A stretch of DNA of 64,000 bases, from NCBI GenBank assembly GCA_934277615.1, contig CAKQUV010000001.1, forward strand, positions 206,380 through 270,379, read 5' to 3'. The position numbers and the translations under genes are program-made. Positions 1,713 through 56,226 of this stretch are shown here, piece by piece. Numbering within the stretch: the first letter of the stretch is position 1; each line of letters opens with the position of its first letter. The notes under the pieces were generated by a model. The model was not told the DNA's origin, did no database searches, and saw only the letters and a list, made by a program, of their open reading frames with translations. Source of the stretch: an uncultured Clostridia bacterium (GTDB lineage: Bacteria; Bacillota; Clostridia; Christensenellales; CAG-917).

Positions 1713-4700
1713 ATGAAAAAGATAGTTACCGCACTTATGATAGTATTGCCTCTCGTGTTCCTCATCGCGCTTTTTGCCGTTACAAACGTGGCGAGCGTGT
1801 CGGCGGATATCTCAGCAAACTCTATACGCATAGGAAACAAGGGCGACAACGGCATATTCTCATTTGACCTTGCAAACTACGAGCATCCGATGTATGAAAG
1901 CGACCTTGCCGTGGAAGTGCTGCCCTACAAAGCGAAAAACCGCGCTTACTCACTTGCCGTTACGGACGCACACACCGGCGAGGCAAGCGACATAGTTAGC
2001 CTCAACGGCGACGGCTCGTTCAGCCTGAACGACGTTGGCGTCGCAAAGCTCACGTACACAAGCATGGACGGCGGATACTCTGACAGCGTTGTGTTTAATA
2101 TCGGCTCGAGCGGCATTTTGGAATACACTCCCACCCTCTCGGACGTGCAAGGCAACGCTATATCTCTTGACGGAAACGGCGACGATTACACCGCCACAGT
2201 GAGTACCGGCACGTTTATACTCGGCGGCGACTATTATCCGCAAACCGCAACCAACGTGCAAATCAAATACGAAAGCGAAAACGCCTCCGCTCTCACGGTC
2301 AACGAAGTGAGCGGACGAGTGTATGCATATTTCGACACGGACACGACGGTGAAAATGCACGTCGTAAACGCATTCGGACAAAACGTAACTAAACGCATAG
2401 CGTTTAAAGTGCGCAAAGACGGCGACGCGGCGGTGAACGGCGAGATTGCGCCTAAAAGCACAACGGGCACCGTACCCACCGTTATCGCGCCGCTCAACAC
2501 AAAGCATTTTACCTTTTACGTCGATTACGACGGCGTAACTGACGGGAATATACAAATATCGGGCATACCCGGCGCAACGTACTCCGTACGCAAGTTGGAC
2601 GACGTAAACAACCACTCGTATGCCGTTGACGTAACGCTTGCAAACCCCGTAACTTCACCGACCTCAAACATCAGATGTTCCGTTAAAGTCGGCGACGACG
2701 CGGCGAGCGTGCGACACTTCAGATTGTCATACGCGAACGTCGACTTCTCCGTAAACTCTTTCGGTAACCCTGACGGAAAGGGCGGTTTGGTGCTTCTTGA
2801 CGATACGAACACCAAATTTACCGTGTCCGTGGAGCCGTATGCGGCGTTGCAATACGAATGGTCTATAGAAAACGAAAACGTCGCAAAAATATCCGCTCAA
2901 AACAACGAATATTGCTATATTCAAGCGGTGAGGGACGGCAAGACGACGTTGAGAATACAATGGAAACGTGTGGAAAACGGCTCGGTTGCGGCAAGCGGAA
3001 CGATAGAAAGAGAACTTGTTACGACCAAAGCTTACACATCTCTTATGTTCAACGAATCCGTTACGAAATACGGACTCGGCACGCTTGCAATCGCAAATCA
3101 GCGCTATGAGGGCAATACCTCGGTAAAGACAGATTATATCACCACTCTCTACAACAACGTGATAGGCGGCGACAAGGCGCAAGCGGAAGTTGAGGATTTT
3201 GAAAACATAGTTTTCAAGTCCAGCAACGAATCGGTGGCGAGCATAAAAATAATTGACGGCAAAGTGCATTTCGTCATAAAGGATACCGGCGACGTTACGA
3301 TAAGCGCAAGCTGGAAATACGGAGAGAGATTTAACGTATCTCCCGCTTCCATAACGTTCAAGGCTGTAAACGGCGTATACGTATCGGATTACGACCAACT
3401 TGTGCTTGCAGGCTCGCAAAACAAGCAAATCGTGCTTAAGAATAATATTTACCTCGGCGAAAACCTGTTTGACGAAAACGGAAAAGCCAAATATGACGAA
3501 AATACCATGAGCGAAAAGCTCAGAACGTACACAAAAGAGATTTACTCCACCGCGGATTGCAGATATTACGAGAACACCGGCAAAGGCAAACAAACCGTGC
3601 GCTACTGCTATGAGTTTACAAACAACGTGTACGGCAACGGATATATGCTCAACGCAGAGTATATCACCAACGTTATCGACAGCACGGGCGTGTTGCACGA
3701 TTATGCAGTGTTCAAAGGTCCGCTCGATTTCGTTGCGGCATATATGAACGGCACAAAGATTGCTTCCGTCAAAGGACAGGACAACATTTCCTTCCTTGTG
3801 AGAAAGGACGGCATTACGCTGGATAACGTGGTTTTGGCAGGCTGCGACGACGAATCGCTGTACAACGGCGATACGATGGAACTCAATCTGCTCAACTATA
3901 TCGGCACTACGATTGAAATTATGAGCGACGCTACGATTAAGAATTGTCGCGTTAAGAACGGGCGCACGTGCGTGCGTATATTCGGACGAGATAACGTTGT
4001 CGGCGATACGCCTAACGTGGCGCAAGAGAAAATAAACGTAACGATTGACGGTTGCAGATTGCAAACGGCAAGAGAGTTTATCCTCAAAATAGGTACAAAT
4101 CGTTTCTTGCAAGGCACATCGGGCACATCCGACACTCTGTCCCCTGCTTTTAAGACTTCGACGGGCGCGAACTACGTGCAGAACAACAAGTCCGAATGCG
4201 ATAATCTTGCAAACGACAACTTCTTTGTGTCCAACTATGTGCTTACGGACGTCGTGCTTAAAGACAGCGTGCTGACAAAGAGCGGCTTGTTTACAATCGG
4301 TCTTGAAAGCCACTTTGCAGGCGGTTTCCTCGACAGCGGCGAGGCGACTATGAGCGGAAGTCTGGCAGGCTGGAGCGGACTTGCGGCGACAAGCTACCCT
4401 GCAATTTTGCATCTTGTGGGCGACGTGGTGCTGGAGGACTGGAAAGACCTCGAACAAGTGGACAGTTCCACCCTTATCGAAACGTCGCTTAACAGCGATA
4501 CTCAGCGCTTTGCGTTCCTGTCGCTCAATATCAAAGAGATGTTGCTTGAAGTGAGACGTCAAAATAGCGAATGTCAAAACATTCTCAAAGTCGTGGGCGA
4601 CAAGAACTACGTGCACGGAGGAATCGCGTTCTACGGAGGCGGAAAGAACTACCATATTCTCGACACGAGCGCGTACACGTTTGAGGCGATGCATCAATAT

Positions 4701-4838
4701 AACGTCAATATCGGCGTGCTTGCAAACTCCACGGACGACAAACTCAAAACGCAGGGCGAAATGCTGCCATACGCCGCAGGTACGGAAGATTTCCGTTTCG
4801 TGATGTTTGACGCAACAAGCAACTACTCGCCAAAATAA
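1713..4838 (+). CDS. membrane-anchored/secreted protein with Ig-like (Big_2-type) repeats and a C-terminal parallel beta-helix (pectin-lyase-fold-like) region
   Basis: ATG at 1713 preceded by GGAGGA (1703-1708). N-terminal signal/anchor MKKIVTALMIVLPLVFLIALFAV. Big_2-like segments (NENVAKISAQNNEYCYIQAVRDGKTTLRIQW; SNESVASIKIIDGKVHFVIKDTGDVTISASW). Beta-helix-like repeats (ITLDNVVLAGCDD, IEIMSDATIKNCRVKNGRTCVRIFG). The ORF-track start at 1665 is probably too far upstream. Confidence 0.75.
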   Translation: MKKIVTALMIVLPLVFLIALFAVTNVASVSADISANSIRIGNKGDNGIFSFDLANYEHPMYESDLAVEVLPYKAKNRAYSLAVTDAHTGEASDIVSLNGDGSFSLNDVGVAKLTYTSMDGGYSDSVVFNIGSSGILEYTPTLSDVQGNAISLDGNGDDYTATVSTGTFILGGDYYPQTATNVQIKYESENASALTVNEVSGRVYAYFDTDTTVKMHVVNAFGQNVTKRIAFKVRKDGDAAVNGEIAPKSTTGTVPTVIAPLNTKHFTFYVDYDGVTDGNIQISGIPGATYSVRKLDDVNNHSYAVDVTLANPVTSPTSNIRCSVKVGDDAASVRHFRLSYANVDFSVNSFGNPDGKGGLVLLDDTNTKFTVSVEPYAALQYEWSIENENVAKISAQNNEYCYIQAVRDGKTTLRIQWKRVENGSVAASGTIERELVTTKAYTSLMFNESVTKYGLGTLAIANQRYEGNTSVKTDYITTLYNNVIGGDKAQAEVEDFENIVFKSSNESVASIKIIDGKVHFVIKDTGDVTISASWKYGERFNVSPASITFKAVNGVYVSDYDQLVLAGSQNKQIVLKNNIYLGENLFDENGKAKYDENTMSEKLRTYTKEIYSTADCRYYENTGKGKQTVRYCYEFTNNVYGNGYMLNAEYITNVIDSTGVLHDYAVFKGPLDFVAAYMNGTKIASVKGQDNISFLVRKDGITLDNVVLAGCDDESLYNGDTMELNLLNYIGTTIEIMSDATIKNCRVKNGRTCVRIFGRDNVVGDTPNVAQEKINVTIDGCRLQTAREFILKIGTNRFLQGTSGTSDTLSPAFKTSTGANYVQNNKSECDNLANDNFFVSNYVLTDVVLKDSVLTKSGLFTIGLESHFAGGFLDSGEATMSGSLAGWSGLAATSYPAILHLVGDVVLEDWKDLEQVDSSTLIETSLNSDTQRFAFLSLNIKEMLLEVRRQNSECQNILKVVGDKNYVHGGIAFYGGGKNYHILDTSAYTFEAMHQYNVNIGVLANSTDDKLKTQGEMLPYAAGTEDFRFVMFDATSNYSPK

Positions 4839-4944: not shown

Positions 4945-7900
4945 ATGAACAAGACAAAAAACAAAAGTAAACTGCTTGCATTGACAATGATTTTGGCGCT
5001 TGTCGTTATCGCTACCGCTATGCTTGCCGCATGCAACGAAACCGACGGTCAAGGCGCAATGAAAGTCATTACGTTTGACTTCAACGACGGCACGGGAAAA
5101 ACGTTAGAGAAAATTCTCAACATCGACGAATCCATATCTTATACTCCGCCTGCGCACGAGGGATATAACTTTACCGGTTGGACGTTTGACAAGGAAGGAA
5201 CAAACGCATTTGACGCAAGCAAGGTGGAAACGTCGTCGTTTACGCTGTACGCCCAATGGAAGATAAAGACGTACGCCGTCTATTTCTTCCTGTACGAAGG
5301 CGAAGATCCGATATCCGCTCAAACCGTCAATTACGGCGAGAGCGCAGTCGCACCGAGCGAGGAATCCATTGCTCAATATCTCAAAGAGGGCGACGTGTTT
5401 GTCGGATGGGATAAAAGCTTTGATAACATCAAGAGCGACGCTTACGTGTATGCGGAAACTTCCAAAATCGAATGCTCCGTCAAATTTGTGGACGGCGAGA
5501 ACGAAATTAAGTCCGCTAAAGGCACGTTCGGCGAAAAAATAACCTTGCCGAGCGACAACGAAAACCCGACGAAAAACGGATATAAGTTTGCAGGCTGGTT
5601 TGACGAAAAAGGCAATCAGGCAACCGCCGAAACGACATTTAGCGGCGACAAAACCTACTTTGCAAAGTGGATAATCAACGCTCCGCAACAACCCAAACTC
5701 AACGGCACCTCTGCAATAACGTACGGCGAGAGCGCAAACCTCACCGCCTCTATATCAGAGAAAATCAATGGTATTTCGTATACTTACGAATGGTTTGAAA
5801 AAGGCGTAAGCATAGCAAAAGGCGAAAATGCGACAATTGACAAGCTCGGCGCGGGCAAACACGTGATTATGTGCTATGCAACCGCGTCCGACGGCACTCA
5901 AACAAGCGTCGCGTCCGGTGCGTCGGTAACTGTAAATGTGCAAAAAGCCACTTTAAGTGCGACAATCGCTACAATAAACCTCGTTTACGGCGATGATTTA
6001 CCCGTTTTAGACGTTCAATATACGGGATTTAAGTATGACGACAATCAAAGCGCAATCGACGCCACAAACGTGCAATGGGATACTGCTTATACGCAAACCT
6101 CGAGTGTTGGCGAATACACGATAATCGCAAGCGGTTTTGCGGCGGCAAACTACGAAGTGAGCTTTGCGCAAAGCAAGATTGTTGTCGGCAAGAAAGACGT
6201 TGCGGCAAAGAGCAATCTCGTTTTCGACAAAGAATACGACGGACAGACGTTGGTAAAGACGTTTGGCAACGACAGTTTTGACGGAGTGTTTGCAGGACAC
6301 GTATTAACGCTTGTCCTCACCACGTCGGCGAGCGGCGTTGGCGAATACAGCCTTGCAAACGATACGATTACAAGCAATCTCAAAATCATAGACGGCGAAG
6401 GCAACAACGTTACGGCAAACTACTCCGTTTCGGTCGCCGCAACGGCGTCTATCTCCCCTGCGGCGATAAGCGACGACGACTACACCGTGCCGACAGTCGA
6501 GGCAAACACGTTTGCGTTTGACAACCACAACCACGGCGTGGGAGTAAAGAGCAATGATTTTGAAATAACGTACTCGCTCGAGCAAGACGGCGAATATACC
6601 GCCGTGCAACCGCACTTCACCGACGCAGGCATTTATACCGTTTATTTCAAAGTGTCGCGTAAAAACTACAAGAGCGCAAACGGTAGCTATGTCGTAACTA
6701 TCAACAAGGCGACGCTCGACATCACGATAAATAATCAAAAGACCGTATATGGCAAAGAATTTGAACTTGACAAGACTTTGTATCGCGTAAGCGGCAACGA
6801 CTATAATTTGTTGACATACACGCTCGCGTGCGCGTACGAGGAAGGTAACGGCGCAGGCGCTTACCCGATTATCCTCACAATCGGCACAAAGGGCGAAACG
6901 CGCGGCAACATAGCTCAAAACTTCGACATCAAGATGAACAGCGCCTATCTCGACGTTGATAAAGCGGCGCTGAGCGTGGCTCTCAAGCCCGTTTCCGTAA
7001 CGTACGGCGACGCACTCGAACTCGACATACAAAAACTTGCAACTATCGTCGGACTCTACGGCGCAGACCAAATTGCAGATGTAATCGCTCTCACAACGGA
7101 CTATGCGGCGGACAACAGCCACGTCGTAGGCGGCGAATACTATGTGTATTGCGCGCTCAAGAACGAAAACGGCAACTACACTCTCGCCGACGACAGCGTT
7201 GTAAAGGCGCAAGTTGCGGTAAATAAGCGCACGATTACAGTCAAAGTCGACGATATGAGCGTTATGTACGGCGAGGCTCTCGGTAAATACGACTACACTA
7301 TCGCGAACGGCTCTATCGTTAAAGGCGACGACGTGAACGAGGTTGTGGTATGCCAAAGCGACTACGTTTCCGAATACGGCAATCGCACGCAAGCCGGTGA
7401 AAACGTCGTGATCAACGTAACGTCCGGCAACGCAAACTACGACGTAACGGCAACGACAAGCGCATTGATTACGGTTACAAAGCGTCCCGTAATTATCAAA
7501 CTAAGTTCCGGCGGACAAAATCGTTTGTATTACGGCAAAGCCCCGGACAACTTCTTTGGCGTAAATAATATGCACGTGAGCGTCGATACCAAAAACGGCT
7601 TGAATAAAGCACAAGGCGACGACGTCGGAGAAAGCAGGAACTATGCGTTCTCGCTTGTACGCGGCAGATTTGGCGAAAATCCGGAAGAAGGATACGTCCC
7701 GGGTATGATTGGAAGTTTTGAACTTCGCGCTGTTCCTACGGACGAATATTTGAAGAATAACTATGACTTTACCGTAACTTCGGAAGAAGTCAAGGTTTCG
7801 CCGATTGCGTTTAAACTTAATTTCGAGAGGAAATTTGCCTACAAAGAGGGTGAATTTGCAACGTTTGACATCGCAAAAGCCGCAACACCGCTTTGCGACA

Positions 7901-23965: not shown

Positions 23966-25066
23966 ATGAAACTTATTTGTCAAGGAAACGAATTGAGCGA
24001 CGCTCTCGCAAAAGTTGTAAAGGCACTTCCCGTAAAACGTAATAATCCAATTCTCGACGGTGTAAAACTCACCGCTTTGGGTGATACGCTCACGATTTTT
24101 GCAACCGATCTCGAACTTGCAATTGAAAAGAAAATCAACGCGCAAGTGCTCATTGAAGGCGAAATCGTTGTACCCGGCAAACTTTTTGCGGATTACGCAA
24201 AGAAAATCGAGGAAGAACAAATCGAACTCGACGGCACCGATCCGACAAAACTCATCATCAAGTATCTTGATAGCGAATTGCAAATCAAGTGTATGAGTGC
24301 GGATGAATACCCTGTATTCAAAGAAGTCGATACGCAAAATTCTTTTATCATCCTCAAAAAAGAATTCAAAGACATTATTTCCAAGGTTATATTCAACGTT
24401 GCGGTTGACGAGGCAAGACCTTCCCTCCGCGGCGTGTGCCTCAACATCAAAGACGAAGAGGTTGAAGCTGTCGCATCCGACGGATATCGACTTGCTCTTG
24501 CAAGAGCGCAAATCAAAAACAACGGCATCGTTGACAAAATCGTCGTTCCTTCCAAGAGTATGAACGAGCTTGCTCGTCTTATCGACGAGGGTGAAGAAAC
24601 AATCACCGTCTATGTTGAGAAAAACTATATCATGGTTGACCTCTTCCACACTAAAATCGTTACAAGACTTATCGGTGAGGAATATATCAACTATGAAAAA
24701 ATTATCCCCAGCGTTTTCACCACTGAAGTTACAATCGACAAGAAGCTCTTTGAAAACGCAATCGATCGTGTATCCCTTATCAACCGCACCGAGAAGAAAT
24801 CTTACGTGAAGATGGAAATCAAAGAGGATACAATCTCCCTCAACGCACACAGCGATGACGGCGAAATCAACGAAAAAGTTACCATCGGTCTTAAAGGAAA
24901 AGATCTTACAATCGGTTTCAATTCCAAATACATCATTGACAGCATGCATGCAATCGACGAGCCGTTTGTAACTCTCAACTTCACAACCTCTACGGCACCG
25001 GGAATTATTAAGGGCGAGAGCGACCGTTGGCTGTATCTCATCCTTCCTCTCCGTGTCATCGGTTAA
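23966..25066 (+). CDS. dnaN: DNA polymerase III beta sliding clamp
   Basis: 366 aa of typical three-domain clamp length. MKLICQGNELSDALAKVVKALP..., RPSLRGVCLNI, C-terminal ...LILPLRVIG. Confidence 0.95.
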   Translation: MKLICQGNELSDALAKVVKALPVKRNNPILDGVKLTALGDTLTIFATDLELAIEKKINAQVLIEGEIVVPGKLFADYAKKIEEEQIELDGTDPTKLIIKYLDSELQIKCMSADEYPVFKEVDTQNSFIILKKEFKDIISKVIFNVAVDEARPSLRGVCLNIKDEEVEAVASDGYRLALARAQIKNNGIVDKIVVPSKSMNELARLIDEGEETITVYVEKNYIMVDLFHTKIVTRLIGEEYINYEKIIPSVFTTEVTIDKKLFENAIDRVSLINRTEKKSYVKMEIKEDTISLNAHSDDGEINEKVTIGLKGKDLTIGFNSKYIIDSMHAIDEPFVTLNFTTSTAPGIIKGESDRWLYLILPLRVIG

Positions 25067-25074
25067 AAAACGCG

Positions 25075-25225
25075 CTAAATAGCGACTAACTTTGTCAGTG
25101 CCCCGAGCCCGCCAACTCATTTACGATTAGTAAATTAGGGTTGTCGTTCTCGGGGCACTTTCGCGTTACTCATCTGTTTGGTGAGCTTTTATATATTTTT
25201 TATTATAATTCATCTATTTATCGCG
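25075..25225 (+). repeat. family-A palindromic intergenic element, copy A1
   Basis: ctaaatagcgactaactttgtcag + stem gtgccccgag (25098-25107) + conserved core caactcatttacgattagtaaattagggttg (25113-25143) + stem ctcggggcac (25149-25158) + tttcgcg...ttcatctatttatcgcg. Starts 9 nt after the dnaN stop. Confidence 0.75.
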
Positions 25226-25263
25226 TTTTTATAAGCTTTATTTTTATATGGAATATTCCTTAT

Positions 25264-25464
25264 GTCATTTCGAGCGTTAGCGTGGCAATCAAGGCGTAAG
25301 CCGCACACATAAAGCAAACGATATAGCGAAATTGTGGTAAGAGCTTTATCCTTGTTTGAACTGATAGCGTGTATCGGTTGCGCGGTAGAAGTTGCGAAAA
25401 CAAATACAATAAAGGGACTGCTATTATTATTGCAGTCCCTTTGTAATTATGCCGTTTGAGCAAC
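25264..25464 (+). repeat. family-B element, copy B1 (conserved core plus variable long hairpin)
   Basis: Core gtcatttcgagcgttagcgtggcaatcaaggcgtaagccgcacaca...cgatatagcgaaattgtgg...ctgatagcgtgtatcggttgcgcggtag (25264-25388). Then the nested hairpin gttgc...aaagggactgc-tattattat-tgcagtcccttt...gcaac. Confidence 0.75.
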
Positions 25465-28446: not shown

Positions 28447-28476
28447 GGAATATTTCGCAATTATTAATTATTAATT
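28447..28476 (+). repeat. 30-nt repeat ggaatatttcgcaattattaattattaatt (copy 1)
   Basis: 29/30 identical to 56189-56218. Ends 5 nt from the parB stop codon. Confidence 0.8.
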
Positions 28477-28481
28477 AATTT

Positions 28482-29381
28482 TTACAGTTTATCGTTATAC
28501 TTCAAGATTTGGACGAGAGCGTAAATTCTGTCAAGGTCGTCCTTATTGAAGTAGTCGATTGTGATACGACCTTTTTGGTCGTTACCAACAAGTTTGACCT
28601 TGGTTGCGAAGATGCGTTTCATATCGCCGACAAACTCTTTGAGTTCCAAAGACATAACGCCTTTTTCTCTCGGACCTGACGGAATGGCTTTTCTCGTGAA
28701 GTACAATCTTACACGGTTTTCGAGGTCGCGTACGGAAAGTTTGTTGTCGCAGGCTTGTTTTGCAAGCGTAACAAGATATTCTTTATCGTCAATCGAGATA
28801 AGCGTTCTTGCGTGTCCGGGGGAGAGCTTGCCTTCTCTGACGAGCTCGGTAACTTCGTCGGGGAGTTGCAAAAGTCGCAATGTGTTGGTTACGTACGGAC
28901 GAGATTTGCCAATACGGGATGCAACTTCTTCTTGAGTGAGCCCGTGATTTTCCATAAGTTCGCGCATACCTTCCGCCGCTTCGATTGCGTTGAGGTCTTC
29001 GCGGTGCAAGTTTTCGATGAGCGAAATCTCTTGTATTTGTTGCGGAGTAAAATCTCTGATGATTGCGGGCACTTTTTTAAGACCTGCGAGAAGGCTGGCT
29101 CTGAAACGACGTTCACCTGCGATGATGAGGTATCTTCCGCCCTCGCTTCTCACCAAAATAAGCGGTTGCAAAACGCCGTATGTGGCAATTGACGTAGCCA
29201 TTTCTTTGAGGCTGTCCTCATCGAACGTTTTTCTCGGCTGATTGGGGTTGCGGTCAATGAGCGTGATATCGATTTCTTGCGCTACGATATCGTCGGAGAT
29301 ATCCACTTTTACATTTTCTTCATTGTCGTTGAAAAGTGCGTTAAAGCCTTTGGAACCAAGTCCGCCTTTTGTATTTGCCAT
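28482..29381 (-). CDS. parB: ParB/Spo0J chromosome partitioning protein
   Basis: 299 aa. ParB box LQPLILV...YLIIAGERRFRA, HTH GLTQEEVASRIGKSRPYVTNTLRLL. AAGGAG RBS. The start lies 3 nt downstream of the parA stop codon (29385-29387). Confidence 0.93.
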   Translation of the reverse strand: MANTKGGLGSKGFNALFNDNEENVKVDISDDIVAQEIDITLIDRNPNQPRKTFDEDSLKEMATSIATYGVLQPLILVRSEGGRYLIIAGERRFRASLLAGLKKVPAIIRDFTPQQIQEISLIENLHREDLNAIEAAEGMRELMENHGLTQEEVASRIGKSRPYVTNTLRLLQLPDEVTELVREGKLSPGHARTLISIDDKEYLVTLAKQACDNKLSVRDLENRVRLYFTRKAIPSGPREKGVMSLELKEFVGDMKRIFATKVKLVGNDQKGRITIDYFNKDDLDRIYALVQILKYNDKL

Positions 29382-40427: not shown

Positions 40428-40444
40428 GCAATATGGAGGAAATT

Positions 40445-42139
40445 ATGGAAGAAAGAAAATGGTTCAAAGAGATGTCCGTTTATCAGATTTGGCCTCGTTC
40501 GTTTTGCGACGGAAACGGCGACGGAATAGGCGACCTCAAAGGCGTTTTGAGCAAGCTCGAATACATAAAGAGCCTTGGCAGCGACGCCATTTGGTTCTCG
40601 CCGCTTTACGCCTCGCCGCAAGCGGACTATGGTTACGACATAGCGGACTATTACAACATCAATCCCGAATACGGCACTCTCGACGACTTCAAAGCCGTGC
40701 TTGAAAAAGCGCACGCTCTCGGTATGCGCGTCGTTATGGACCTGGTTATCAACCACACGTCCGACCAACACGATTGGTTCAAAAAGAGTTGCGCGCGCAT
40801 AGAGCCTTACACAGATTTTTATATCTGGCGCAAAGGCAAGGGCAAAGACGGCAAAAAAGTTCCCAACAACTGGATGTCCACTTTCCCCGGCAGCGCATGG
40901 GAATACAACGAGCAAAGAGGCGAGTTTTATCTCCACCTCTACGCCAAAGAGCAGCCCGACCTCAATCATGACAATCCCAAGGTGAGAGAGGCGGTCAAGG
41001 ACGTTATGCGTTATTGGCTGGATATGGGCGTCGACGGATTCCGCGAGGACGTCATTACGCAAATCAGCAAGGTCGAAGGTTTGCCCAACGGCAATTGGCT
41101 TATGCCTGCTTCGAGGGGTATGGAGCATTACAACAACGGCCCTCATATTCACGAGTATTTGCAAGAATACCGCGAGGTTTTGAAAGATTACGATGCGTTC
41201 CAAGTGGGAGAAGCACCGCTTATGAACGTCAAGACCGCGCTTACCTACGTCAACGAGAACAAGAAAGAGCTCGATATGATGATATCCTTCCAACATATGC
41301 AAGCGGATTGTATTATTATCGAGTGGGTGCGTACGCCGTTTAATTTGCCCAAACTCAAAAAAACCTTCAACGAGTGGCAAACCAAACTTTACCATAGAGC
41401 GTGGAACGCCAACTACCTCGAAAACCACGACCACGCGCGTATTATTTCAAGATACGGTAACGAGAATTTCAGAGTGGAAAGCGGCAAAGCGCTCGCAATG
41501 GCTTACACTTTCCTCAGCGGCACGCATTTTGTCTATCAAGGACAAGAAATCGGTATGACCGCACTCTATTTTGACAAATACCCCAAAGGCACGGATCCGT
41601 GGGCGCAATTCAAGGACGTTTCCACCTTCTGCGTGCGCGATTTGATGCGCAAGTTCGGTTTCAGCGACAAACATATCCTCAAAGTCGCACACACCGCCGC
41701 TCGCGACTGCGCTCGCACACCCGTACAATGGAACGGTCAGAAATACGCGGGTTTCTCCACTGTCGAGCCGTGGTATACCGTCAATCCCAACTATCCCCAA
41801 GTCAACGTGGAAAACGCCTTGCAAGACGAAAACTCTATCTGGTATTTCTATCAACGCGCAATGGCGCTCCGCAAAGAGTACAAGGATACCGCGATTTACG
41901 GACAGTTCAAACTCTACTTGCCTCACGACAAGCAACTTTTCGTCTACGACAAGATAGCCGAGGACGGCAAGTCCAAGCTCACCATCGTCATCAATCTGTC
42001 CGCCAAACCCGTCCGCGCTTCTAGGGTAACCAAGTATATTCCGACCGACGCAACGGAGTTGTTGTCCGTCTACGACGATAAGTGGGATAAGGAGTTGCGT
42101 CCTTATTCGGGCAAACTCTTTTACACACAACTTCACTAA
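40445..42139 (+). CDS. GH13 alpha-glucosidase (oligo-1,6-glucosidase / trehalose-6-phosphate hydrolase-like)
   Basis: WFKEMSVYQIWPRSF, VMDLVINHTSDQHDWF, GVDGFREDVI, YLENHDHAR. Start at ATG 40445, 5 nt after GGAGGA (alternative 40433). Confidence 0.9.
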   Translation: MEERKWFKEMSVYQIWPRSFCDGNGDGIGDLKGVLSKLEYIKSLGSDAIWFSPLYASPQADYGYDIADYYNINPEYGTLDDFKAVLEKAHALGMRVVMDLVINHTSDQHDWFKKSCARIEPYTDFYIWRKGKGKDGKKVPNNWMSTFPGSAWEYNEQRGEFYLHLYAKEQPDLNHDNPKVREAVKDVMRYWLDMGVDGFREDVITQISKVEGLPNGNWLMPASRGMEHYNNGPHIHEYLQEYREVLKDYDAFQVGEAPLMNVKTALTYVNENKKELDMMISFQHMQADCIIIEWVRTPFNLPKLKKTFNEWQTKLYHRAWNANYLENHDHARIISRYGNENFRVESGKALAMAYTFLSGTHFVYQGQEIGMTALYFDKYPKGTDPWAQFKDVSTFCVRDLMRKFGFSDKHILKVAHTAARDCARTPVQWNGQKYAGFSTVEPWYTVNPNYPQVNVENALQDENSIWYFYQRAMALRKEYKDTAIYGQFKLYLPHDKQLFVYDKIAEDGKSKLTIVINLSAKPVRASRVTKYIPTDATELLSVYDDKWDKELRPYSGKLFYTQLH

Positions 42140-42245
42140 ATAGCGAATAACTGCGGCAGAGCCGTTCGCTGGTCAACTCATTTACGATTAGTAAATTAGG
42201 GTTGCCCCTCGGACGGCTCTTTCTTGTTCTTCATCTATTTATCGC
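42136..42245 (+). repeat. family-A element, copy A2
   Basis: ctaaatagcgaataactg + stem agagccgt (42158-42165) + core caactcatttacgattagtaaattagggttg (42174-42204) + stem acggctct (42213-42220) + ttcttgttcttcatctatttatcgc. Its first TAA (42137-42139) is the stop codon of the glucosidase gene. Confidence 0.8.
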
Positions 42246-42279
42246 AGTTTGGCAAGCTTTTGTTTAAGCGGAATATTCC

Positions 42280-42357
42280 ACAACTTGCGCCTTCGGCTTG
42301 ATTGCCACGTCACGTCGTTTCTCGCAATGACTATATGGTGGGACACCCACACCCGAA
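42280..42357 (-). repeat. partial inverted family-B copy (B2')
   Basis: The reverse complement reads ttcgggtgtgggtgtcccaccatatagtcattgcgagaaacgacgtgacgtggcaatcaagccgaaggcgcaag, which parallels the 5' part of B3. Arranged head to head with B2. Confidence 0.6.
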
Positions 42358-42373
42358 TTATATTTTTCCTTAT

Positions 42374-42587
42374 GTCATTCCGAGGAGCAACGAATGTTGC
42401 GATGTGGGAATCTAGGCGTTAGCCGCACACACCAAGCAAGCGATATAGCGGAACTGTGGTATGAGTTTTATCCTTGCAAGACTGATAGCGTGTATCGGTT
42501 GCGCGGTAGTAAAGCAAAAATCTAACGTGGCACTTGGCAATACACACAAGTGTGTGTTGCCATTGCCACAGTGACGATTTTTGCTTG
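42374..42587 (+). repeat. family-B element, copy B2 (core plus long hairpin)
   Basis: Core gtcattccgaggagcaacgaatgttgcgatgtgggaatctaggcgttagccgcacacaccaagcaagcgatatagcggaactgtgg...ctgatagcgtgtatcggttgcgcggtag (42374-42509). Then agcaaaaatc...gtggca..tacacac-aag-tgtgtgt..tgccac...gatttttgct. Confidence 0.8.
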
Positions 42588-42613
42588 CTCTTTTCCCCAT
42601 TCTCTATTATAAT
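42585..42613 (+). promoter_or_regulatory. candidate promoter for the flavoprotein gene, overlapping the B2 3' end
   Basis: TTGCTC (42585-42590), 17-nt spacer, TATAAT (42608-42613), 28 nt upstream of ATG 42642 (GAGGTG RBS). Confidence 0.45.
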
Positions 42614-42641
42614 TTCCTATACAAAAACTATGAGGTGAATT

Positions 42642-43787
42642 ATGTATATAACTGACGATATATTTTACGTGGGAGTCAACGACCACGATATAGACTTGTT
42701 CGAGGGACAATACGTCGTCAAAAACGGCATGTCCTACAATTCCTACGTCGTCAAAGACGAACAAATTGCGGTTTTCGACACAGTTGACGCACATTTTTCA
42801 AAGCAATGGTTTGCAAATCTCAAGGAAATTTTGAACGGCGCAGTACCGACTTATCTCGTCGTGCAACACATGGAGCCTGACCATTCGGCAAACGTCGCGC
42901 TGTTTATGTCGGCGTATCCCGAAGCCAAAATCGTAGCGTCGTCCAAGGCTTTTGCGATGATGAAAAACTATTTCGGCACGGACTTTGCGGACAGGCAAGT
43001 AGTGGTAGGGGACGGCTCCACGCTTTGCACGGGCAAACACACTTTCTCTTTTGTAACAGCGCCGCTTGTCCATTGGCCGGAAGTTATCATGACGTACGAT
43101 AGTTTCAGCGGAATGCTCTTTTCTGCAGACGCATTCGGAAAGTTCGGCGCTCTCGACGTCGAAGAGGACTGGACCGACGAAGCAAGACGTTACTATATCG
43201 GCATTGTCGGCAAATTCGGAGCGCAAGTGCAAAATCTATTTAAGAAAGTCGCAGGGCTCGACATCAAGAAAATTTGCCCTTTGCACGGACCCGTGCTTTG
43301 CGACAATCTCGCATATTATATCGGACTTTACGACAAATGGTCCAAGTACGATGCGGAAGAGGACGGCGTAGTCATCGCATACACATCCGTTTACGGACAT
43401 ACTAAAGCCGCCGTCCAAATCCTCGCCGATTTATTGCGCGCCAAGGGCAGCAAAGCGGTTGTTTACGACCTCGCAAGATGCGATATGTCCGAGGCGGTCG
43501 CCGATGCTTTCAGATACAGCAAAATCGTGCTTGCCACGACGACGTACAACGGCGGAATTTTCCCCTTTATGCGTGAATTTATATCCACGCTCGTCGAGCA
43601 CAATTTCCAAAACAGAACGGTTGCATTTATAGACAACGGCACGTGGGCGCCGTTCGCAACCAAGGTTATGAAAGGTATGTTGGAGGGCTGCAAGAACCTC
43701 GATATTTTGGAGCAAGGCGTAAAGATACTTTCCGCAGTCAATGAAACGAATATCCGAGAAATCAACGCTCTTGCGCAAGCGCTATAA
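42642..43787 (+). CDS. FprA-type flavodiiron protein (metallo-beta-lactamase fold plus flavodoxin domain)
   Basis: 381 aa. Di-iron motif HMEPDHS and a C-terminal flavodoxin-like domain (VVIAYTSVYGHTK...). Confidence 0.85.
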   Translation: MYITDDIFYVGVNDHDIDLFEGQYVVKNGMSYNSYVVKDEQIAVFDTVDAHFSKQWFANLKEILNGAVPTYLVVQHMEPDHSANVALFMSAYPEAKIVASSKAFAMMKNYFGTDFADRQVVVGDGSTLCTGKHTFSFVTAPLVHWPEVIMTYDSFSGMLFSADAFGKFGALDVEEDWTDEARRYYIGIVGKFGAQVQNLFKKVAGLDIKKICPLHGPVLCDNLAYYIGLYDKWSKYDAEEDGVVIAYTSVYGHTKAAVQILADLLRAKGSKAVVYDLARCDMSEAVADAFRYSKIVLATTTYNGGIFPFMREFISTLVEHNFQNRTVAFIDNGTWAPFATKVMKGMLEGCKNLDILEQGVKILSAVNETNIREINALAQAL

Positions 43788-45806: not shown

Positions 45807-46060
45807 TCGGAGACGGAACTTCGAGCCGCAAGGCGGCGAGCCTGTCGAGCGTCGAGGTAGACGGAATGTACAAGCGACTGCGCCGTGTTGTTGCGTAGCG
45901 GGCGCACAAAGCGCGTGGCATAATGAGTGTACGATACTTATCTATCCGAAGACCGAGTGTTGCCCCCCTGCGGAGCAGTTCCGTGGGTTCCCTCAAGCAG
46001 AGCGCAGAGGGGGAACGGAATAGGGGAAACACATGAGGAAGGGGGGGAAGGTGCATTTAA
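45806..46060 (+). repeat. family-C structured intergenic element, copy C1
   Basis: Starts at the last base of the ychF stop codon. Shares with C2/C3 the order cggag - hairpin gccgc-aag-gcggc (45825-45837) - gtacaag - hairpin tgcgcc-gtgttgtt...-ggcgca (45879-45906) - gcataat. Shares with C3 the block gtgggttccctcaagcagagcgcagagggggaacggaataggggaaacac (45983-46032). Confidence 0.7.
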
Positions 46061-46174: not shown

Positions 46175-47857
46175 ATGTTTGAAAAAGAATTAGCAAAGGC
46201 GCTTGCCGTGGAAGGACTTTCCGAGCAAGACGTCGAAAATGCTCTCGAAACACCCAAAGACACTACGCTCGGCGACGTATGTTTGCCGTGCTTCAAGTTT
46301 GCTCGCGCAATGAGGCTTGCGCCGCCCATGATTGCCAACAAACTTTTGCCATACGTTCAATCTCTCGATTTCGTGCAAAAAGTCGAGGTTGTAGGCGGAT
46401 ATCTCAACGTGTTTTTTGACAGAAACACCGTTGCGAAGATGGCTCTTGCAAGCGCAAAGGACGAAAACGTCGGCGCAAGCAACGAGGGCGCAGGCAAGAC
46501 GATTTGCATTGACTATAGTTCCGTAAACATCGCAAAGCCTTTCCACATCGGGCACCTTTCCACAACCGTTATCGGCGGCGCGCTCTATCGTATATTCGAA
46601 CATTTGGGATACAAAGTCGTGGGTATCAACCACCTTGGCGACTGGGGCACGCAATTTGGAAAACTTATTGTCGCAACGCAAAAATGGTCCTCACTCGAGG
46701 ATGTCGCAAACAACGACGAATACTACCTCAACAGGCTTTATGTCCGCTATCACAAAGAGGCTGAGGAGCACCCCGAAATGGACGACGAGGCGCGCGCTTG
46801 GTTCAAGCGTATCGAGGACGGCGACAAAGAGGCGATTGCCTATTTTGACGTGTTCAAAGCGGTAACCATGAAAGCCGTCGGACGCATTTACGACCGCCTC
46901 AAAATCAAGTTTGACAGTTACGCAGGCGAGAGTTTTTACAATGATAAAATGGAAGCTTGCCTCGACATATTGAGAGAGAAGAATTTGCTTGTCGAAAGCG
47001 ACGGCGCACAAGTTGTCAACCTCGACGAATACGGCATGCCTCCGTGCCTTCTCGTAAAGGCGGACGGCGCGACTTTGTATGCAACTCGCGACATCGCCGC
47101 AGCGTATTATCGCAAGAAAACATACGACTTCTACAAATGCCTCTATGTTGTTGCATATCAGCAGAATCTGCACTTTAAACAACTGTTTCAAGTGCTTAAA
47201 CTTATGGATTTTGCAGGTGCGGACGATATGGAACACATTGCGTTCGGCATGGTTTCCATGGAAGACGGATCGATGTCCACAAGAAACGGCAGGGTGATTT
47301 GGCTTCAGGAAGTGCTTGACAAAGCCGTTGATAAGGCAAGAAAAATCATTGAGGAAAAGAACCCCGACACCAAAGACAAAGACGCAATCGCAGAGAGCGT
47401 CGGCGTGGGCGCAGTGGTATTTTCCGCGCTTTGGAACAACCGCATAAAAGACATCGTTTTCTCATACGACAAGGTGCTTAATTTTGACGGTGAAACCGCA
47501 CCTTACGTTCAATACACTTACGCTCGTTGCGCAAGCGCATTGAGAAAGGGCGGCGACATAGATTTTGACAACGTCGATCTTTCTTCAATCACCACCGACG
47601 AGGGCTACGAGGTCATCAAGAGTGTTCTCACTTTCGGCGATTCCGTACGTCTTGCCGCCAAACTCCGCGAGCCATGCTACGTTACGCGCCACGTTGTCGA
47701 CCTTGCCGAAAAATTCAATCGTTTCTACATCGATCATCGCATTCTTGTTGACGATGTACCAACGCGCAACGCCCGTCTTGCACTCACCCAAGCGGTGGCA
47801 AACGTAATTCATTGCGGATTGAGGCTTCTTGGCATCGACACCCCCAACGAAATGTGA
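46175..47857 (+). CDS. argS: arginine--tRNA ligase
   Basis: 560 aa. HIGH-type motif PFHIGHLS, KMSKS-like MSTRNG, and a C-terminal DALR anticodon-binding domain. Confidence 0.95.
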   Translation: MFEKELAKALAVEGLSEQDVENALETPKDTTLGDVCLPCFKFARAMRLAPPMIANKLLPYVQSLDFVQKVEVVGGYLNVFFDRNTVAKMALASAKDENVGASNEGAGKTICIDYSSVNIAKPFHIGHLSTTVIGGALYRIFEHLGYKVVGINHLGDWGTQFGKLIVATQKWSSLEDVANNDEYYLNRLYVRYHKEAEEHPEMDDEARAWFKRIEDGDKEAIAYFDVFKAVTMKAVGRIYDRLKIKFDSYAGESFYNDKMEACLDILREKNLLVESDGAQVVNLDEYGMPPCLLVKADGATLYATRDIAAAYYRKKTYDFYKCLYVVAYQQNLHFKQLFQVLKLMDFAGADDMEHIAFGMVSMEDGSMSTRNGRVIWLQEVLDKAVDKARKIIEEKNPDTKDKDAIAESVGVGAVVFSALWNNRIKDIVFSYDKVLNFDGETAPYVQYTYARCASALRKGGDIDFDNVDLSSITTDEGYEVIKSVLTFGDSVRLAAKLREPCYVTRHVVDLAEKFNRFYIDHRILVDDVPTRNARLALTQAVANVIHCGLRLLGIDTPNEM

Positions 47858-47860
47858 GCG

Positions 47861-47985
47861 CGCCAAACGGCGAATAGCTTTGTCAAAGCCCCTTGAACAG
47901 CAACCCTAACGTACTAATGCGTACGTGAGTTGATGAACAAGGGGCTTTTGACGCGATTGACTCCGTAACAATCGCTATTAAACGC
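47861..47985 (-). repeat. family-A element, copy A3 (whole unit inverted)
   Basis: Stem aaagccccttg (47886-47896) / caaggggcttt (47938-47948) around caaccctaacgtactaatgcgtacgtgagttg, which is the reverse complement of the A core. The flanks ccaaacgg... and ...caatcgctattaa align to the reverse complement of the A1 flanks. Starts 4 nt after the argS stop. Confidence 0.75.
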
Positions 47986-48042
47986 GCTCTTCATCCGTTT
48001 GGACGGCTCTTTTTATAAAGTGCAGTCGTAAAACCTTAATGC

Positions 48043-48382
48043 AATAACCCCCTCTTTCCGGACACGCCGGTATGTCCACTTCGGCGTTTGCGCACCGCAA
48101 TCCGCCTTGTTCGCTTTGGCTACAACACATTCACCGAATGTGTCGCTTAACGCGTCGCGCCCGACCACTCGTATAGGGGGCTTCTATACAAAAGTGAACA
48201 TCGCTCGCGGGGGAGACATTTGGCACTCACATAGACAAGTATCGTTCACTTGTTATGCCACTCGTTCGCCAACGAAAAGAACAACACTCGTTGGCTCACT
48301 TGTACTAATCGTCAAGTTCGGCGCAAAAACGCTCGTCGCCTTGCGACTCGAAGCTCCGAATAAGCACATACCGTTAATAAGT
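48043..48382 (-). repeat. family-C element, copy C2 (inverted relative to C1/C3)
   Basis: The reverse complement shares with C3 aacggtatgtgcttattcggag (48354-48375), gtacaagtgagccaacgagtgttgttcttttcgttggcgaacgagtg and ccggcgtgtccggaaagagggggttatt (48043-48070). The middle part diverges. Confidence 0.75.
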
Positions 48383-48402
48383 ACGCTCCGAACAAGCTTC
48401 CG

Positions 48403-48678
48403 TTCGGGTGTGGGTGTCCCGCCCATATAGTCATTCCGAGCGAAGCGTGGGAATCAAGGCGTCAGCCGTACACACCAAGCAAGCGATATAGCGAAATTGT
48501 GGCGGGAGTACTTATCCTTGCTTGAACTGATAGCGTGTATCGATTGCGCGGTAGTAGAGCAATAAATCAAGCAAGGCTCTCGGCAATCGCCAAAAATATT
48601 CAAAGTTTGAGATTATATTTTTAATCAAAAATATGCAATTTTGGCGGTTGTCGTTGCCTCGGCGATGATTTTTGCTCT
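48403..48678 (+). repeat. family-B element, copy B3 (core plus long hairpin)
   Basis: ttcgggtgtgggtgtcccgcccatata + gtcattccgagcgaagcgtgggaatcaaggcgtcagccgtacacaccaagcaagcgatatagcgaaattgtgg...ctgatagcgtgtatcgattgcgcggtag (to 48554). Then the imperfect hairpin agagcaataaatc...ggcaatcgccaaaa...ttttggcggttg..gcc...gatgatttttgctct. Confidence 0.8.
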
Positions 48679-48683
48679 TTTAC

Positions 48684-48712
48684 TTGACACTATCTTTTGT
48701 TTTATTTATAAT
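48684..48712 (+). promoter_or_regulatory. consensus sigma-A promoter for the rpmH operon
   Basis: TTGACA (48684-48689), 17-nt spacer, TATAAT (48707-48712). Lies directly after the B3 hairpin. Confidence 0.6.
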
Positions 48713-48786: not shown

Positions 48787-48921
48787 ATGAAACAAACCTA
48801 CCAACCCAAGAAAAGACAAAGAAGCAAAGTCCACGGATTCCGTGAAAGAATGTCCACCAAGTCCGGCAGGAACGTTCTCAAAAGACGTCGCAACAGAGGC
48901 AGAAAGAAACTCAGCGCATAA
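48787..48921 (+). CDS. rpmH: 50S ribosomal protein L34
   Basis: Not in the ORF track because it is shorter than 60 aa. Hand translation gives [52 protein letters not shown] 8 nt upstream. Confidence 0.92.
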
Positions 48922-48929
48922 CGATTGAT

Positions 48930-55379: not shown

Positions 55380-55408
55380 TTGACAAATAATTCTTTTGGG
55401 CATAATAT
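55380..55408 (+). promoter_or_regulatory. near-consensus orphan promoter with no downstream ORF
   Basis: TTGACA (55380-55385), 17-nt spacer, TAATAT (55403-55408). Preceded by a long A/T-rich tract. Downstream DNA up to 56226 contains only repeat modules A4, A5 and C3. Confidence 0.5.
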
Positions 55409-55511
55409 GTAAACGTAATCGGGAAACGAAAGGCTCCCGAACCAAAATAACTCATAATTTTCCCCCTTATCATAGCGAGCGACTTTGGGTGTATCACCCG
55501 AGGTCGTTTGC

Positions 55512-55640
55512 ATTTTATGGAACAAAACAGCAAATAACTGTGTCAGAGCCACCCGACCATCAACTCATTTACGATAAGTAAACTAGGGTTGCTGTTCGGG
55601 TGGCTCTTCCTTGTTCTTTATCCGTTTTGTTCCATAAAAT
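55512..55640 (+). repeat. family-A element, copy A4, with a 17-bp outer stem
   Basis: attttatggaacaaaac (55512-55528) pairs with gttttgttccataaaat (55624-55640). Inner stem agagccacccga (55545-55556) / tcgggtggctct (55596-55607). Core caactcatttacgataagtaaactagggttg (55561-55591). Confidence 0.8.
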
Positions 55641-55733: not shown

Positions 55734-55794
55734 TATATCTCTTTGACGGCTTTATATTATGGCGTCATTAAGCGATATACTTCGTCAAAGTCTA

Positions 55795-56152
55795 CTTATA
55801 AACGGTATGTGCTTATTCGGAGTTGGAGGCGCAGGGCGCCGACCGCATCGAGCGCCAAGCTTGACGATAAGTACAAGTGAGCCAACGAGTGTTGTTCTTT
55901 TCGTTGGCGAACGAGTGACATAATAAGGGAAATGTCCCTATCTATGCGCGTGCCGTAAGGAGCGAAGCGACGGAATAGCGATTGCTACGAAGTCAATCGC
56001 GTCGCCTGTCCCCCGCTACGCGGTCGTCGTGGGTTCCCTCAAGCAAAGCGCGGAGGGGGAACGGCGATAGGGAAAACACCTTGAGGAAAGGGAAAATTGC
56101 ATTAAATATTTATTTTTATAAATGCCGGCGTGTCCGGAAAGAGGGGGTTATT
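55795..56152 (+). repeat. family-C element, copy C3
   Basis: Shares its 5' and 3' blocks with C2 and its 3'-central block (56029-56079) with C1. Hairpins ggcgc-agg-gcgcc (55828-55840) and gccaacga-gtgttgttcttt-tcgttggc (55881-55908). Confidence 0.75.
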
Positions 56153-56188
56153 CTATTTAGAGGAGTTATGACGCTCTTTATTTTTCAT

Positions 56189-56218
56189 GGAATATTCCGC
56201 AATTATTAATTATTAATT
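56189..56218 (+). repeat. 30-nt repeat ggaatattccgcaattattaattattaatt (copy 2)
   Basis: 29/30 identical to 28447-28476. Ends 8 nt from the glmM stop codon. Confidence 0.8.
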
Positions 56219-56226
56219 CATAATTA

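Follow-up and report, generated by a model that had tools for sequence, protein, structure and literature searches.

In a window of 64,000 nt from an uncultured Clostridia bacterium (contig CAKQUV010000001.1, positions 206,380 to 270,379), the gap of approximately 500 bases between a glucosidase gene and a flavodiiron gene is filled by copies of two dispersed, hairpin-forming repeat families, which we call A and B. These are two independent families of intergenic repeats, dispersed in a clade of uncultured human-gut Clostridia. On the reading that we hold to be moderately probable, the spacer is a mosaic of such repeats, in which the A copy behind the glucosidase gene, A2, terminates or stabilises the glucosidase mRNA, the B sequences are tolerated and the promoter of the flavodiiron gene is ancestral.

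When positions 42051-42700 of the window were compared by BLAST with 102 related loci, bases 42129-42587 proved to be dispersed repeats, the coverage by related loci starting at 42129 and ending at 42584-42587. The flanking coding sequence and the last 54 nt ahead of the flavodiiron ATG were unique in the same comparison. An earlier reading of this DNA, hereafter the original prediction, had described the intergenic region as built from repeat modules; this is borne out by the repetition of 42129-42587 at the related loci, and all features described there were found in place or a few bases away.

The nearest public genomes are metagenome-assembled genomes of uncultured human-gut Clostridia, labelled 'Christensenella sp. 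UBA7571/UBA6880/UBA767/UBA7588' or 'uncultured Clostridiales UMGS...', plus a few mislabelled bins. One metagenome scaffold (L231; the prefix L denotes related loci throughout) equals the window at 100% identity over 7146 nt. Strain polymorphism at the glucosidase-flavodiiron locus was considered and dropped, the sole contigs with an identical flavodiiron protein being identical to the window.

The A hairpin family and its polarity

The exact 31-nt apex of A, CAACTCATTTACGATWAGTAAAYTAGGGTTG, was found in 102 stretches (loci) from 13 related gut Clostridia genomes, which gives 108 copies together with the window, where four A-type copies are present. The conserved unit measures about 125-135 nt, and the median span of the predicted hairpin is 173 nt. 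In an almost gap-free alignment of 63 copies, the consensus forms a hairpin of approximately 130 nt with 48 pairs, 34 of which are changed on both sides. Paired cells accounted for 94.7% of this alignment, compared to 75.3% in column shuffles and 33-44% when the partners were slid, and the number of doubly changed cells was 584, compared to 174 expected.

The position of A relative to genes is equally constrained. A same-strand open reading frame (ORF) of at least 100 amino acids (aa) stops 26-99 nt before the apex in 83 of the 108 copies, 66 of these stops lying at -42 to -53, and only four of the 108 copies are flipped, in that a convergent gene on the opposite side has its end at -25 to -49. 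A stop codon is present at -55 to -25 in 78 copies, the upstream genes belonging to 45 unrelated families, and the median distance from the 5' edge of the palindrome to the stop codon downstream of it is 2 nt. In all 63 aligned copies, the GC-rich stem is followed by a T-rich shoulder, which is confined to the sense side (T fraction 0.52 after the stem, compared to an A fraction of 0.24 before it). This shoulder, the gene polarity and an invariant T-G wobble in the apex are the only strand asymmetries of A, and the wobble is an artefact of selecting copies by their exact core. Some sites are kept across species, for example behind dnaN in the window, L049 and L074, and behind a gene of 567 aa in five genomes. 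Judged by its sequence and placement, A behaves as a hairpin of 3' ends that is read in the same sense as the gene before it, i.e. as a putative terminator or mRNA-stabilising element.

Three further observations on A were made in the window. At 47853-47989, right after an ORF of 560 aa (46175-47857), an A-type element has arms in the usual orientation around an inverted and divergent apex (caaccctaacgtactaatgcgtacgtgagttg), which looks like the flip of a hairpin tip by recombination between the arms; the orthologue of this ORF carries a normal A copy in five other genomes. A small hairpin module, gacgcgattgac...caatcgctatt, is nested as a repeat within a repeat in the A arms of the window (47950-47979) and of L044, L002, L004, L006, L039, L070, L080, L082 and L094, at constant arm positions, measuring about 30 nt in the 3' arm and about 55 nt in the 5' arm, where it has the extension ccgtcacttcgttccttacag. 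The third A copy (55512-55640) is preceded by no long ORF (window 55400-55640) and instead by a conserved non-coding stretch ending in ...cacccgaggtcgtttgc, which is common to four other loci (L009, L015, L019 and L099) and has no Rfam match; this stretch may represent the 3' end of a small RNA or small gene that has escaped annotation and is terminated by A.

A2 at the end of the glucosidase gene

The gene in front of A2 is a GH13 alpha-glucosidase / oligo-1,6-glucosidase-like ORF at 40433..42139 (+), taken from the ORF list and supported by the Pfam family Alpha-amylase (E = 1.7e-146) and by syntenic orthologues in the order gyrB-gyrA-glucosidase. It ends in ...ctt cac TAA, with the stop codon at 42137-42139. 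A2 itself, a copy of the ~130-nt family at 42137..42250 (+) according to profile match, fold and family covariation, consists of a 5' arm (42137-42173), a conserved apex (42174-42204) and a 3' arm with the T-rich shoulder (42205-42250), all on the forward strand. A profile of the 63 A copies matches 42128-42252 with E = 3e-35, and the 31-nt core CAACTCATTTACGATTAGTAAATTAGGGTTG at 42174-42204 occurs three times in the window with no occurrence expected. The predicted fold has a free energy of -42.6 kcal/mol (z = -4.9), and the flank 'ctaaatagcga' recurs in another copy, A1, at 25077-25087. In this fold, TAAATAG pairs with CTATTTA, which makes the glucosidase TAA the first base-paired triplet of the robust stem of A2 and supports the earlier claim that the stop codon lies within the A hairpin.

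A consensus scan of the window found no other terminator-like site between 42139 and 42508, and the suggestion that A terminates the upstream gene is plausible. A2 would form the 3' end of the glucosidase mRNA as a long hairpin with a GC-rich middle stem, followed by a U-rich shoulder, and would stand in for the simple intrinsic terminator of orthologues without A. Because it replaces that terminator, A2 most likely terminates and/or stabilises the glucosidase transcript, as far as we can infer from the sequence. Since the TAA sits within the basal stem, a terminating ribosome would be expected to open this part of the hairpin.

The original prediction went further in that it let A2 donate the stop codon, and proposed to compare the C-termini of orthologues. 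The TAA at 42137 corresponds to family position -37, at which TAA is found in 25 of 93 A arms and is used as the stop of the upstream gene by six other copies. Relative to the window (...FYTQLH*, TAA, then the A2 hairpin), three orthologues without A have the same stop position, namely L225 (89% protein identity, ...FTALD*), L227 (82% protein identity, ...YSKIN*) and L229 (79% protein identity, ...YTKLN*, TAA, then the base A). A plain terminator, i.e. a canonical hairpin plus T-run right after the stop, is present in L225, L227 and L135, the last of which (84% DNA identity) also has no A and stops one codon later (...YTPLAK*); in L229, no A element follows. Because three element-free orthologues use the same codon position, the position of the stop is ancestral and the element abuts or overlaps it, and donation is not shown for the copy in the window.

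The closest relative, L223 (93% protein identity, ...FYRAI*, TAG), is different. At 4680-4830 of this locus, the last three codons and the TAG stem from an A 5'-arm fragment, 'cgcgctatTTAGcg', and a complete A-type element with a divergent apex (aaaatcacgtactacttgtacgttgggtttt) comes next, which is a real case of stop-codon donation, the 3' end of the glucosidase gene having been remodelled by A sequence. In L091, an unrelated ORF of 1048 aa has the same cttcacTAA end, and the 90% identity of its element to A2 begins 19 nt before the stop, so that a copied A unit can include a few terminal codons. Stop-codon donation is unproven for A2 and plausible for the A family.

The promoter of the flavodiiron gene

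The gene downstream of the mosaic is an ORF at 42642..43787 (+) for a flavodiiron-type protein with a metallo-beta-lactamase-like ODP and a flavodoxin domain (Pfam ODP, Flavodoxin_5, Flavodoxin_1 and Lactamase_B). Its ribosome-binding site is GAGGTG at 42632-42637, and orthologues are present in L223, L225 and L081. Farther out, gyrA lies upstream of the glucosidase gene, and uppP and ychF lie downstream of the flavodiiron gene.

By direct reading, a putative sigma-70-type promoter is located at 42585..42613 (+), with the -35 box TTGCTC at 42585-42590, a 17-nt spacer and the -10 box TATAAT at 42608-42613. The -35 box is weak, with three of six consensus matches, and the promoter was missed by a consensus scan. 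This sequence is thus present at the end of B2 as it had been read; the accompanying claim that the repeat provides the promoter finds no support. L223, which has no B unit, has the TATAAT and the whole 5' untranslated region (UTR) in common with the window (TATAATTTCC(T)ATACAAAA..ATGAGGTGAATTATG), its -35 box being TTGACA, 18 nt upstream of the -10 box. Moreover, the homology to other repeats extends no farther than 42584-42587, where the unit has its 3' edge, and the TTGCTC that follows differs after other B copies. Because they are common to a B-less relative, the -10 box, the likely start site, the 5' UTR and the ribosome-binding site are ancestral. The ancestral upstream region, with a better -35 box, would then have been displaced or replaced by the repeats, which did not create the promoter; at most, the insertion may have weakened the -35 region.

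A comparable arrangement is seen at B3, another B unit of the window, the hairpin of which ends at ~48676: a perfect TTGACA-17-TATAAT follows 8 nt on, at 48684-48712, and then an ORF of 44 codons (48788-48922) that reads as ribosomal protein L34 (rpmH). B units tend to sit just upstream of resident promoters and are not their source. As the hairpins of both B2 and B3 are followed by UCUUUU, they may insulate these promoters from upstream transcription.

The B family

The structured core of B2 lies at 42374..42511 (+), as defined by a profile match at 42368-42520 (E = 1e-36) and by helix covariation. It begins with a leader hairpin GTCATTCCGAG...GTGGGAATC (42374-42412) and a small hairpin, followed by ACCAAGCA (42431-42438); a long-range helix, in which 42436-42448 pairs with 42489-42502, then closes the conserved loop CGGAACTGTGG...CTGATAG, and GCGCGGTAG comes after it. 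The terminal hairpin AGCAAAAATC...GATTTTTGCT (42508..42589, +), behind which UCUUUU follows, was assigned by homology and by a predicted fold of -43.4 kcal/mol (z = -7.7), with homologues in L003, L104, L162, L052, L039 and L088 and in the window at 48557-48676. This hairpin is terminator-like and integral to its B sub-type, and its equivalent in B3 was scored as terminator-like in the scan.

A B profile built from nine copies gave 26 matches in the genome loci plus the window and at least 170 in all when metagenome loci were added, at least 148 of them in the latter; a pattern scan of metagenomes gave at least 120 loci. The units have a common order of a short 5' hairpin, ACCAAGCA, a long-range helix of 13-16 bp, a conserved loop of about 45 nt (CGAAAYTGYGG ... 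GAG TTTTTRTCC ... CTGATAG), GCGCGGTAG and a long 3' hairpin, which is closed by GCAAWAAATC/GATTTTTGC (B2 and B3) or by ATTGCGAGAAC/GTTTGAGCAAT. The two strands of the helix vary by sub-type yet stay complementary, with compensatory changes at 8 of 15 pairs, at least 59 variants and a fixed non-Watson-Crick position in the middle. Neither a third helix inside the loop nor a type II hammerhead was retained as a candidate: the possible pairings of the former were inconsistent across sub-types, and the latter, suggested by eye by CUGAUAG plus GAAA, had the wrong order of the essential G8/A9 and no ribozyme model match.

Among the matches listed, 117 B units were single, 22 were arranged in pairs and three in triplets, and the flanking genes were oriented (-,-) in 36 cases, (+,+) in 14, convergent in 13 and divergent in 13. 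We discarded the idea that A and B form one composite element, as most B units have no A within 700 nt. When 1033 ORFs within 2.5 kb of B units were clustered in search of a partner protein, only spurious repeat ORFs and unrelated housekeeping genes came out, the latter being an ABC transporter, giant surface proteins and a Spo0A-like regulator, and no neighbour recurred. The spurious ORFs (120-250 codons), which group together in BLASTP, traverse the B arrays of L105, L118, L121, L125, L205, L216 and others and are artefacts of translated repeats. B has no fixed partner gene or orientation. It is probably a structured element, tolerated or selfish, that has persisted in the gap between terminator and promoter, where its 3' hairpin plus UCUUUU may act as an insulating terminator.

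The part of the mosaic between A2 and B2 consists of a spacer and a B fragment, B'. The spacer (42249..42279, +) is common to the A1-B1 composite behind dnaN, with 80% identity to 25209-25259; it contains a promoter-like TTGGCA-17-AATATT, found by consensus scan, and the 10-bp palindrome GGAATATTCC at 42270-42279. Upstream of B units in L074, L091 and L039, GGAATATTC recurs. B' (42280..42365, -) is the inverted 5' leader of a B unit according to BLAST matches to 48403-48461, L003, L039 and L015 and to a comparison with L198 and with 25250-25270, the segment 42294-42357 (-) matching the 5' leader of B3 (48403-48461, 81.5%) and the B units in L003, L039 and L015. It contains the hairpins gggtgtgggtgtcccacc (gggtgtggg type, 42337-42357) and GTCATTGCGAG...GTGGCAATC (42300-42331) and a small GCC-GAAG-GCG hairpin, ends just short of the ACCAAGCA core and differs from B2 in sub-type (ATTGC/GCAAT compared to ATTCC/GGAAT). 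B' is flanked by GGAATATTCC and TTATGTCATT, and because these two are contiguous in the paralogous A1-B1 composite, B' looks like a later insertion into an A-spacer-B composite and not like the arm of a designed switch. The head-to-head inverted repeat of B' and B2 that had been noted does exist, with a predicted joint fold of z = -2.8, but it is modest and not large as had been stated: the best ungapped arms (42313-42331 / 42374-42392) are 19 nt long at 79% identity and lie approximately 40 nt apart.

Other repeated modules were seen in the neighbourhood of such mosaics. A gggtgtggg...cccaccc hairpin and/or GGAATATTCC lies beside AT-rich (TTATTAA)n in the window (28447-28484 and 56189-56226), in L081:61-115 and in L091:4676-4730 and 6040-6100, often at the edge of a mosaic and just upstream of genes. 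A non-coding composite of about 450 nt occurs twice in the window, inverted and 7.4 kb apart (47950-48400 and 55780-56160; up to 103 nt at 86% identity), and in many metagenome loci, B units are immediately preceded by parts of it (ttcgctttggctacaacacattcaccgaatgtg..., ...ccgaataagcacataccgttaataagtacgc...). A 48-nt repeat, cgtgggttccctcaagcagagcgcagagggggaacgg..., is present at 45982-46029 and 56028-56075 with 85% identity.

Weighing of the alternatives

Several points weigh against reading the spacer as a terminating or stabilising A2, a tolerated B and an ancestral promoter. A2 was not called by a simple consensus scan for terminators, and the A stem is followed by a U-tract that is short and broken up (UUUCUUGUUCUU). 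Between the two strands, the A hairpins differ appreciably neither in mean folding energy (-74.75 and -74.97 kcal/mol) nor in the number of G-U pairs (364 and 318), and a strand test of RNA versus DNA on these two measures was dropped; furthermore, single-sided changes are rare in the alignment. Equal folding, equal G-U numbers and rare single-sided changes are as compatible with a DNA palindrome as with an RNA under selection, and besides such selection, arm-to-arm copying or template switching of the DNA may contribute to the matching of the arms. The tight placement of A at stop codons goes beyond what tolerance alone would give, and targeted insertion may be involved. As for B, its core is thermodynamically ordinary (z = -0.7), and its conserved loop suggests a specific ligand or partner. 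Finally, termination at A2, transcription of B2 and the transcription start of the flavodiiron gene are all inferred.

The original prediction treated A as inserted sequence, and in a sharper form A would be a mobile element similar to miniature inverted-repeat transposable elements (MITEs), which inserts at TA/TAA and supplies the stop and the last codons. We regard this as possible but somewhat unlikely. It would account for the presence of A in the window and L223 and its absence from the orthologous site in L225, L227, L229 and L135, for the TAA...TTA boundaries of A, which are compatible with a TA duplication, for stops embedded in the arms (-26 in 77 of 93, besides those at -37), for ORFs that read at least 10 nt into the palindrome in 14 copies, and for the gene ends of L223, within an A-arm fragment, and of the unrelated L091 ORF with its A2-like element. 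At A2, however, the stop stands as in the element-free orthologues (...T-x-L-x-*) and no donation is needed. The TA flanks belong to the A palindrome, which would mask a target duplication, and the empty sites are too diverged to be aligned across the junction. No transposase is linked to the A family and none was found among the neighbours of the locus, no systematic search beside A copies having been made. Stops do exceed those in shuffled arms, yet the mirror arm is equally rich in them, as follows from the palindrome, and a 'three-frame stop cassette' of strand-specific design was rejected. In several copies of A, e.g. in L016, L020, L029 and L011, the palindrome enters gene-specific coding sequence, which a fixed element consensus fails to explain. 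The same copies enter a wider proposal, in which A would be a terminator able to move, either by homing to gene ends or by being copied from one to another, in stop-codon register and with its outer stem templated from the last codons of the host gene, and in which B, Gut-1 (see below) and other modules would be a class of structured RNA or single-stranded DNA with a specific partner, so that the mosaics would be a functional modular system and not junk; as a whole, we think this proposal unlikely.

With respect to B2, it is doubtful that the unit is an independent small-RNA gene, transcribed from the TTGGCA-17-AATATT at 42249-42277 through B' and ending at the terminal hairpin. Such a gene would fit with this promoter-like site and a similar TTATAA-17-AATATT upstream of B1, with the covariation and conserved loop of B, with the terminator-like 3' hairpin and UCUUUU, and with the proposal of Gut-1, a neighbouring motif in related mosaics, as a non-coding RNA. 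However, the sequences upstream of B units are very diverse and hold no conserved promoter, the conserved element in front of B is the palindrome GGAATATTCC and not a -35/-10 pair, and B units occur in tandem and in either orientation to genes. Very improbable, finally, is a control of the flavodiiron gene by B'/B2 as an invertible DNA switch or by B2 and its hairpin as a riboswitch-like leader, even though the head-to-head arms are predicted to pair and the order of structured element, hairpin with U-run and ribosome-binding site resembles a leader. The DNA inversion envisaged originally is unlikely with arms so short and diverged, with B' and B2 belonging to different sub-types, and with no recombinase among the five neighbours (gyrA, the glucosidase gene, the flavodiiron gene, uppP and ychF). 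A leader is at odds with B1 lying between convergent genes, with B3 preceding rpmH, whose own perfect promoter follows the hairpin, with the mixed orientation of B and its lack of ties to any gene class, and with the flavodiiron -10 box being downstream of the hairpin.

Significance of the repeat families

For this locus, the message of the reading with a terminating or stabilising A2 is that the flavodiiron promoter is ancestral and that the effect of the repeats on it was at most a weaker -35 region and insulation. Two features stand out, the strictly polar A hairpin that is locked to stop codons and the B core, which combines a covarying helix with a conserved loop. A is an unusually clean case of a repeat that is locked, with strict polarity, to the stops of 45 unrelated genes, and it could be used to study how a terminator-like hairpin spreads between genes, whether stop-containing hairpins influence translation termination or mRNA decay, and how the arms of palindromes are kept matched. 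In practical terms, knowing the two families prevents the mis-annotation of spurious ORFs through B arrays as hypothetical proteins and accounts for variable C-termini such as FYRAI* in L223. The orphan motif Gut-1 gains a host lineage and a genomic context from the B mosaics.

Comparison with known systems

A search of the window with Rfam 15 at the gathering score gave a tRNA as the only match and none for A2, B' or B2; at E <= 10 over 42100-42660, and at E <= 1 over other mosaics, only noise from microRNA-like hairpins was obtained. In 2.9 million viral contigs, the A core had no match and the B pattern had two, and a viral origin of A or B was dropped on these numbers. Literature searches on the motif strings and on similar elements in Clostridia found nothing relevant.

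Gut-1 (Rfam RF01706) is known from human-gut metagenomes only and was proposed to be a non-coding RNA with no known function (Weinberg et al. 2010, PMC2864571). A bona fide match to it was found in L179:227-307 (-) with 52.1 bits (gathering score 50), approximately 60 nt from a B unit, and similar hairpins spaced by GTGAAAT flank B units in L078, L091:5570-5670, L124 and L194. At threshold, the window contained no Gut-1, and A2, B' and B2 did not match it; Gut-1 seems, from these sequence contexts, to be another module of the same mosaics.

Integron attC sites resemble A in being imperfect palindromes with asymmetric arms immediately 3' of an ORF, often over its stop, and the A arms even carry RYYYAAC-like (gcctAAC) and GTTRRRY-like (GTTatgc) motifs at mirrored positions as in attC. 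The centre of attC is variable, however, whereas the apex is the most conserved part of A. In addition, the A-bearing genes belong to 45 scattered, unrelated families, including dnaN (ORF of 366 aa, 23966-25066), and form no cassette array, and there is no integrase among the five ORFs around the locus.

Closer parallels are found among the dispersed intergenic repeats. REP/BIME elements of Enterobacteria and Pseudomonas are, like A, extragenic imperfect palindromes which are dispersed, form mosaics with other motifs and lie mostly at the 3' ends of genes, often only a few nucleotides from the stop. REP elements reportedly form part of the upstream gene's transcript, which they stabilise or attenuate. 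REP measures 20-40 nt, whereas A, at ~130 nt, has a conserved apex of 31 nt and a stem in three segments; the sequences are unlike, and the host of A is a Firmicute-type gut anaerobe. ERIC/IRU and the Correia elements (NEMIS) of Neisseria are nearer in size, as imperfect palindromes of 100-160 nt whose presence varies among orthologous sites; transcribed together with the genes beside them, they can carry terminator- or promoter-like signals, and Correia elements are flanked by TA. A likewise has terminal inverted repeats and is present or absent at orthologous sites, as expected of a Correia-like MITE. Correia elements, in contrast, have conserved terminal inverted repeats, a clear TA duplication and a known site for IHF (integration host factor), whereas in A the apex is conserved and the outer stem is variable but complementary. 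To our knowledge, the polarity and stop-codon register of A are stricter than reported for the ERIC and Correia families. The BOX elements of Streptococcus pneumoniae resemble the mosaics in being modular (boxA-boxB-boxC), intergenic hairpin repeats of a Gram-positive bacterium with no coding capacity; their modules are unrelated in sequence, B is built as a long-range helix with a conserved loop and not as a simple A-B-C series, and A and B usually lie apart. The A and B families are of the same kind as REP/BIME, ERIC, Correia and BOX repeats, share no sequence with any of them and are so far undescribed.

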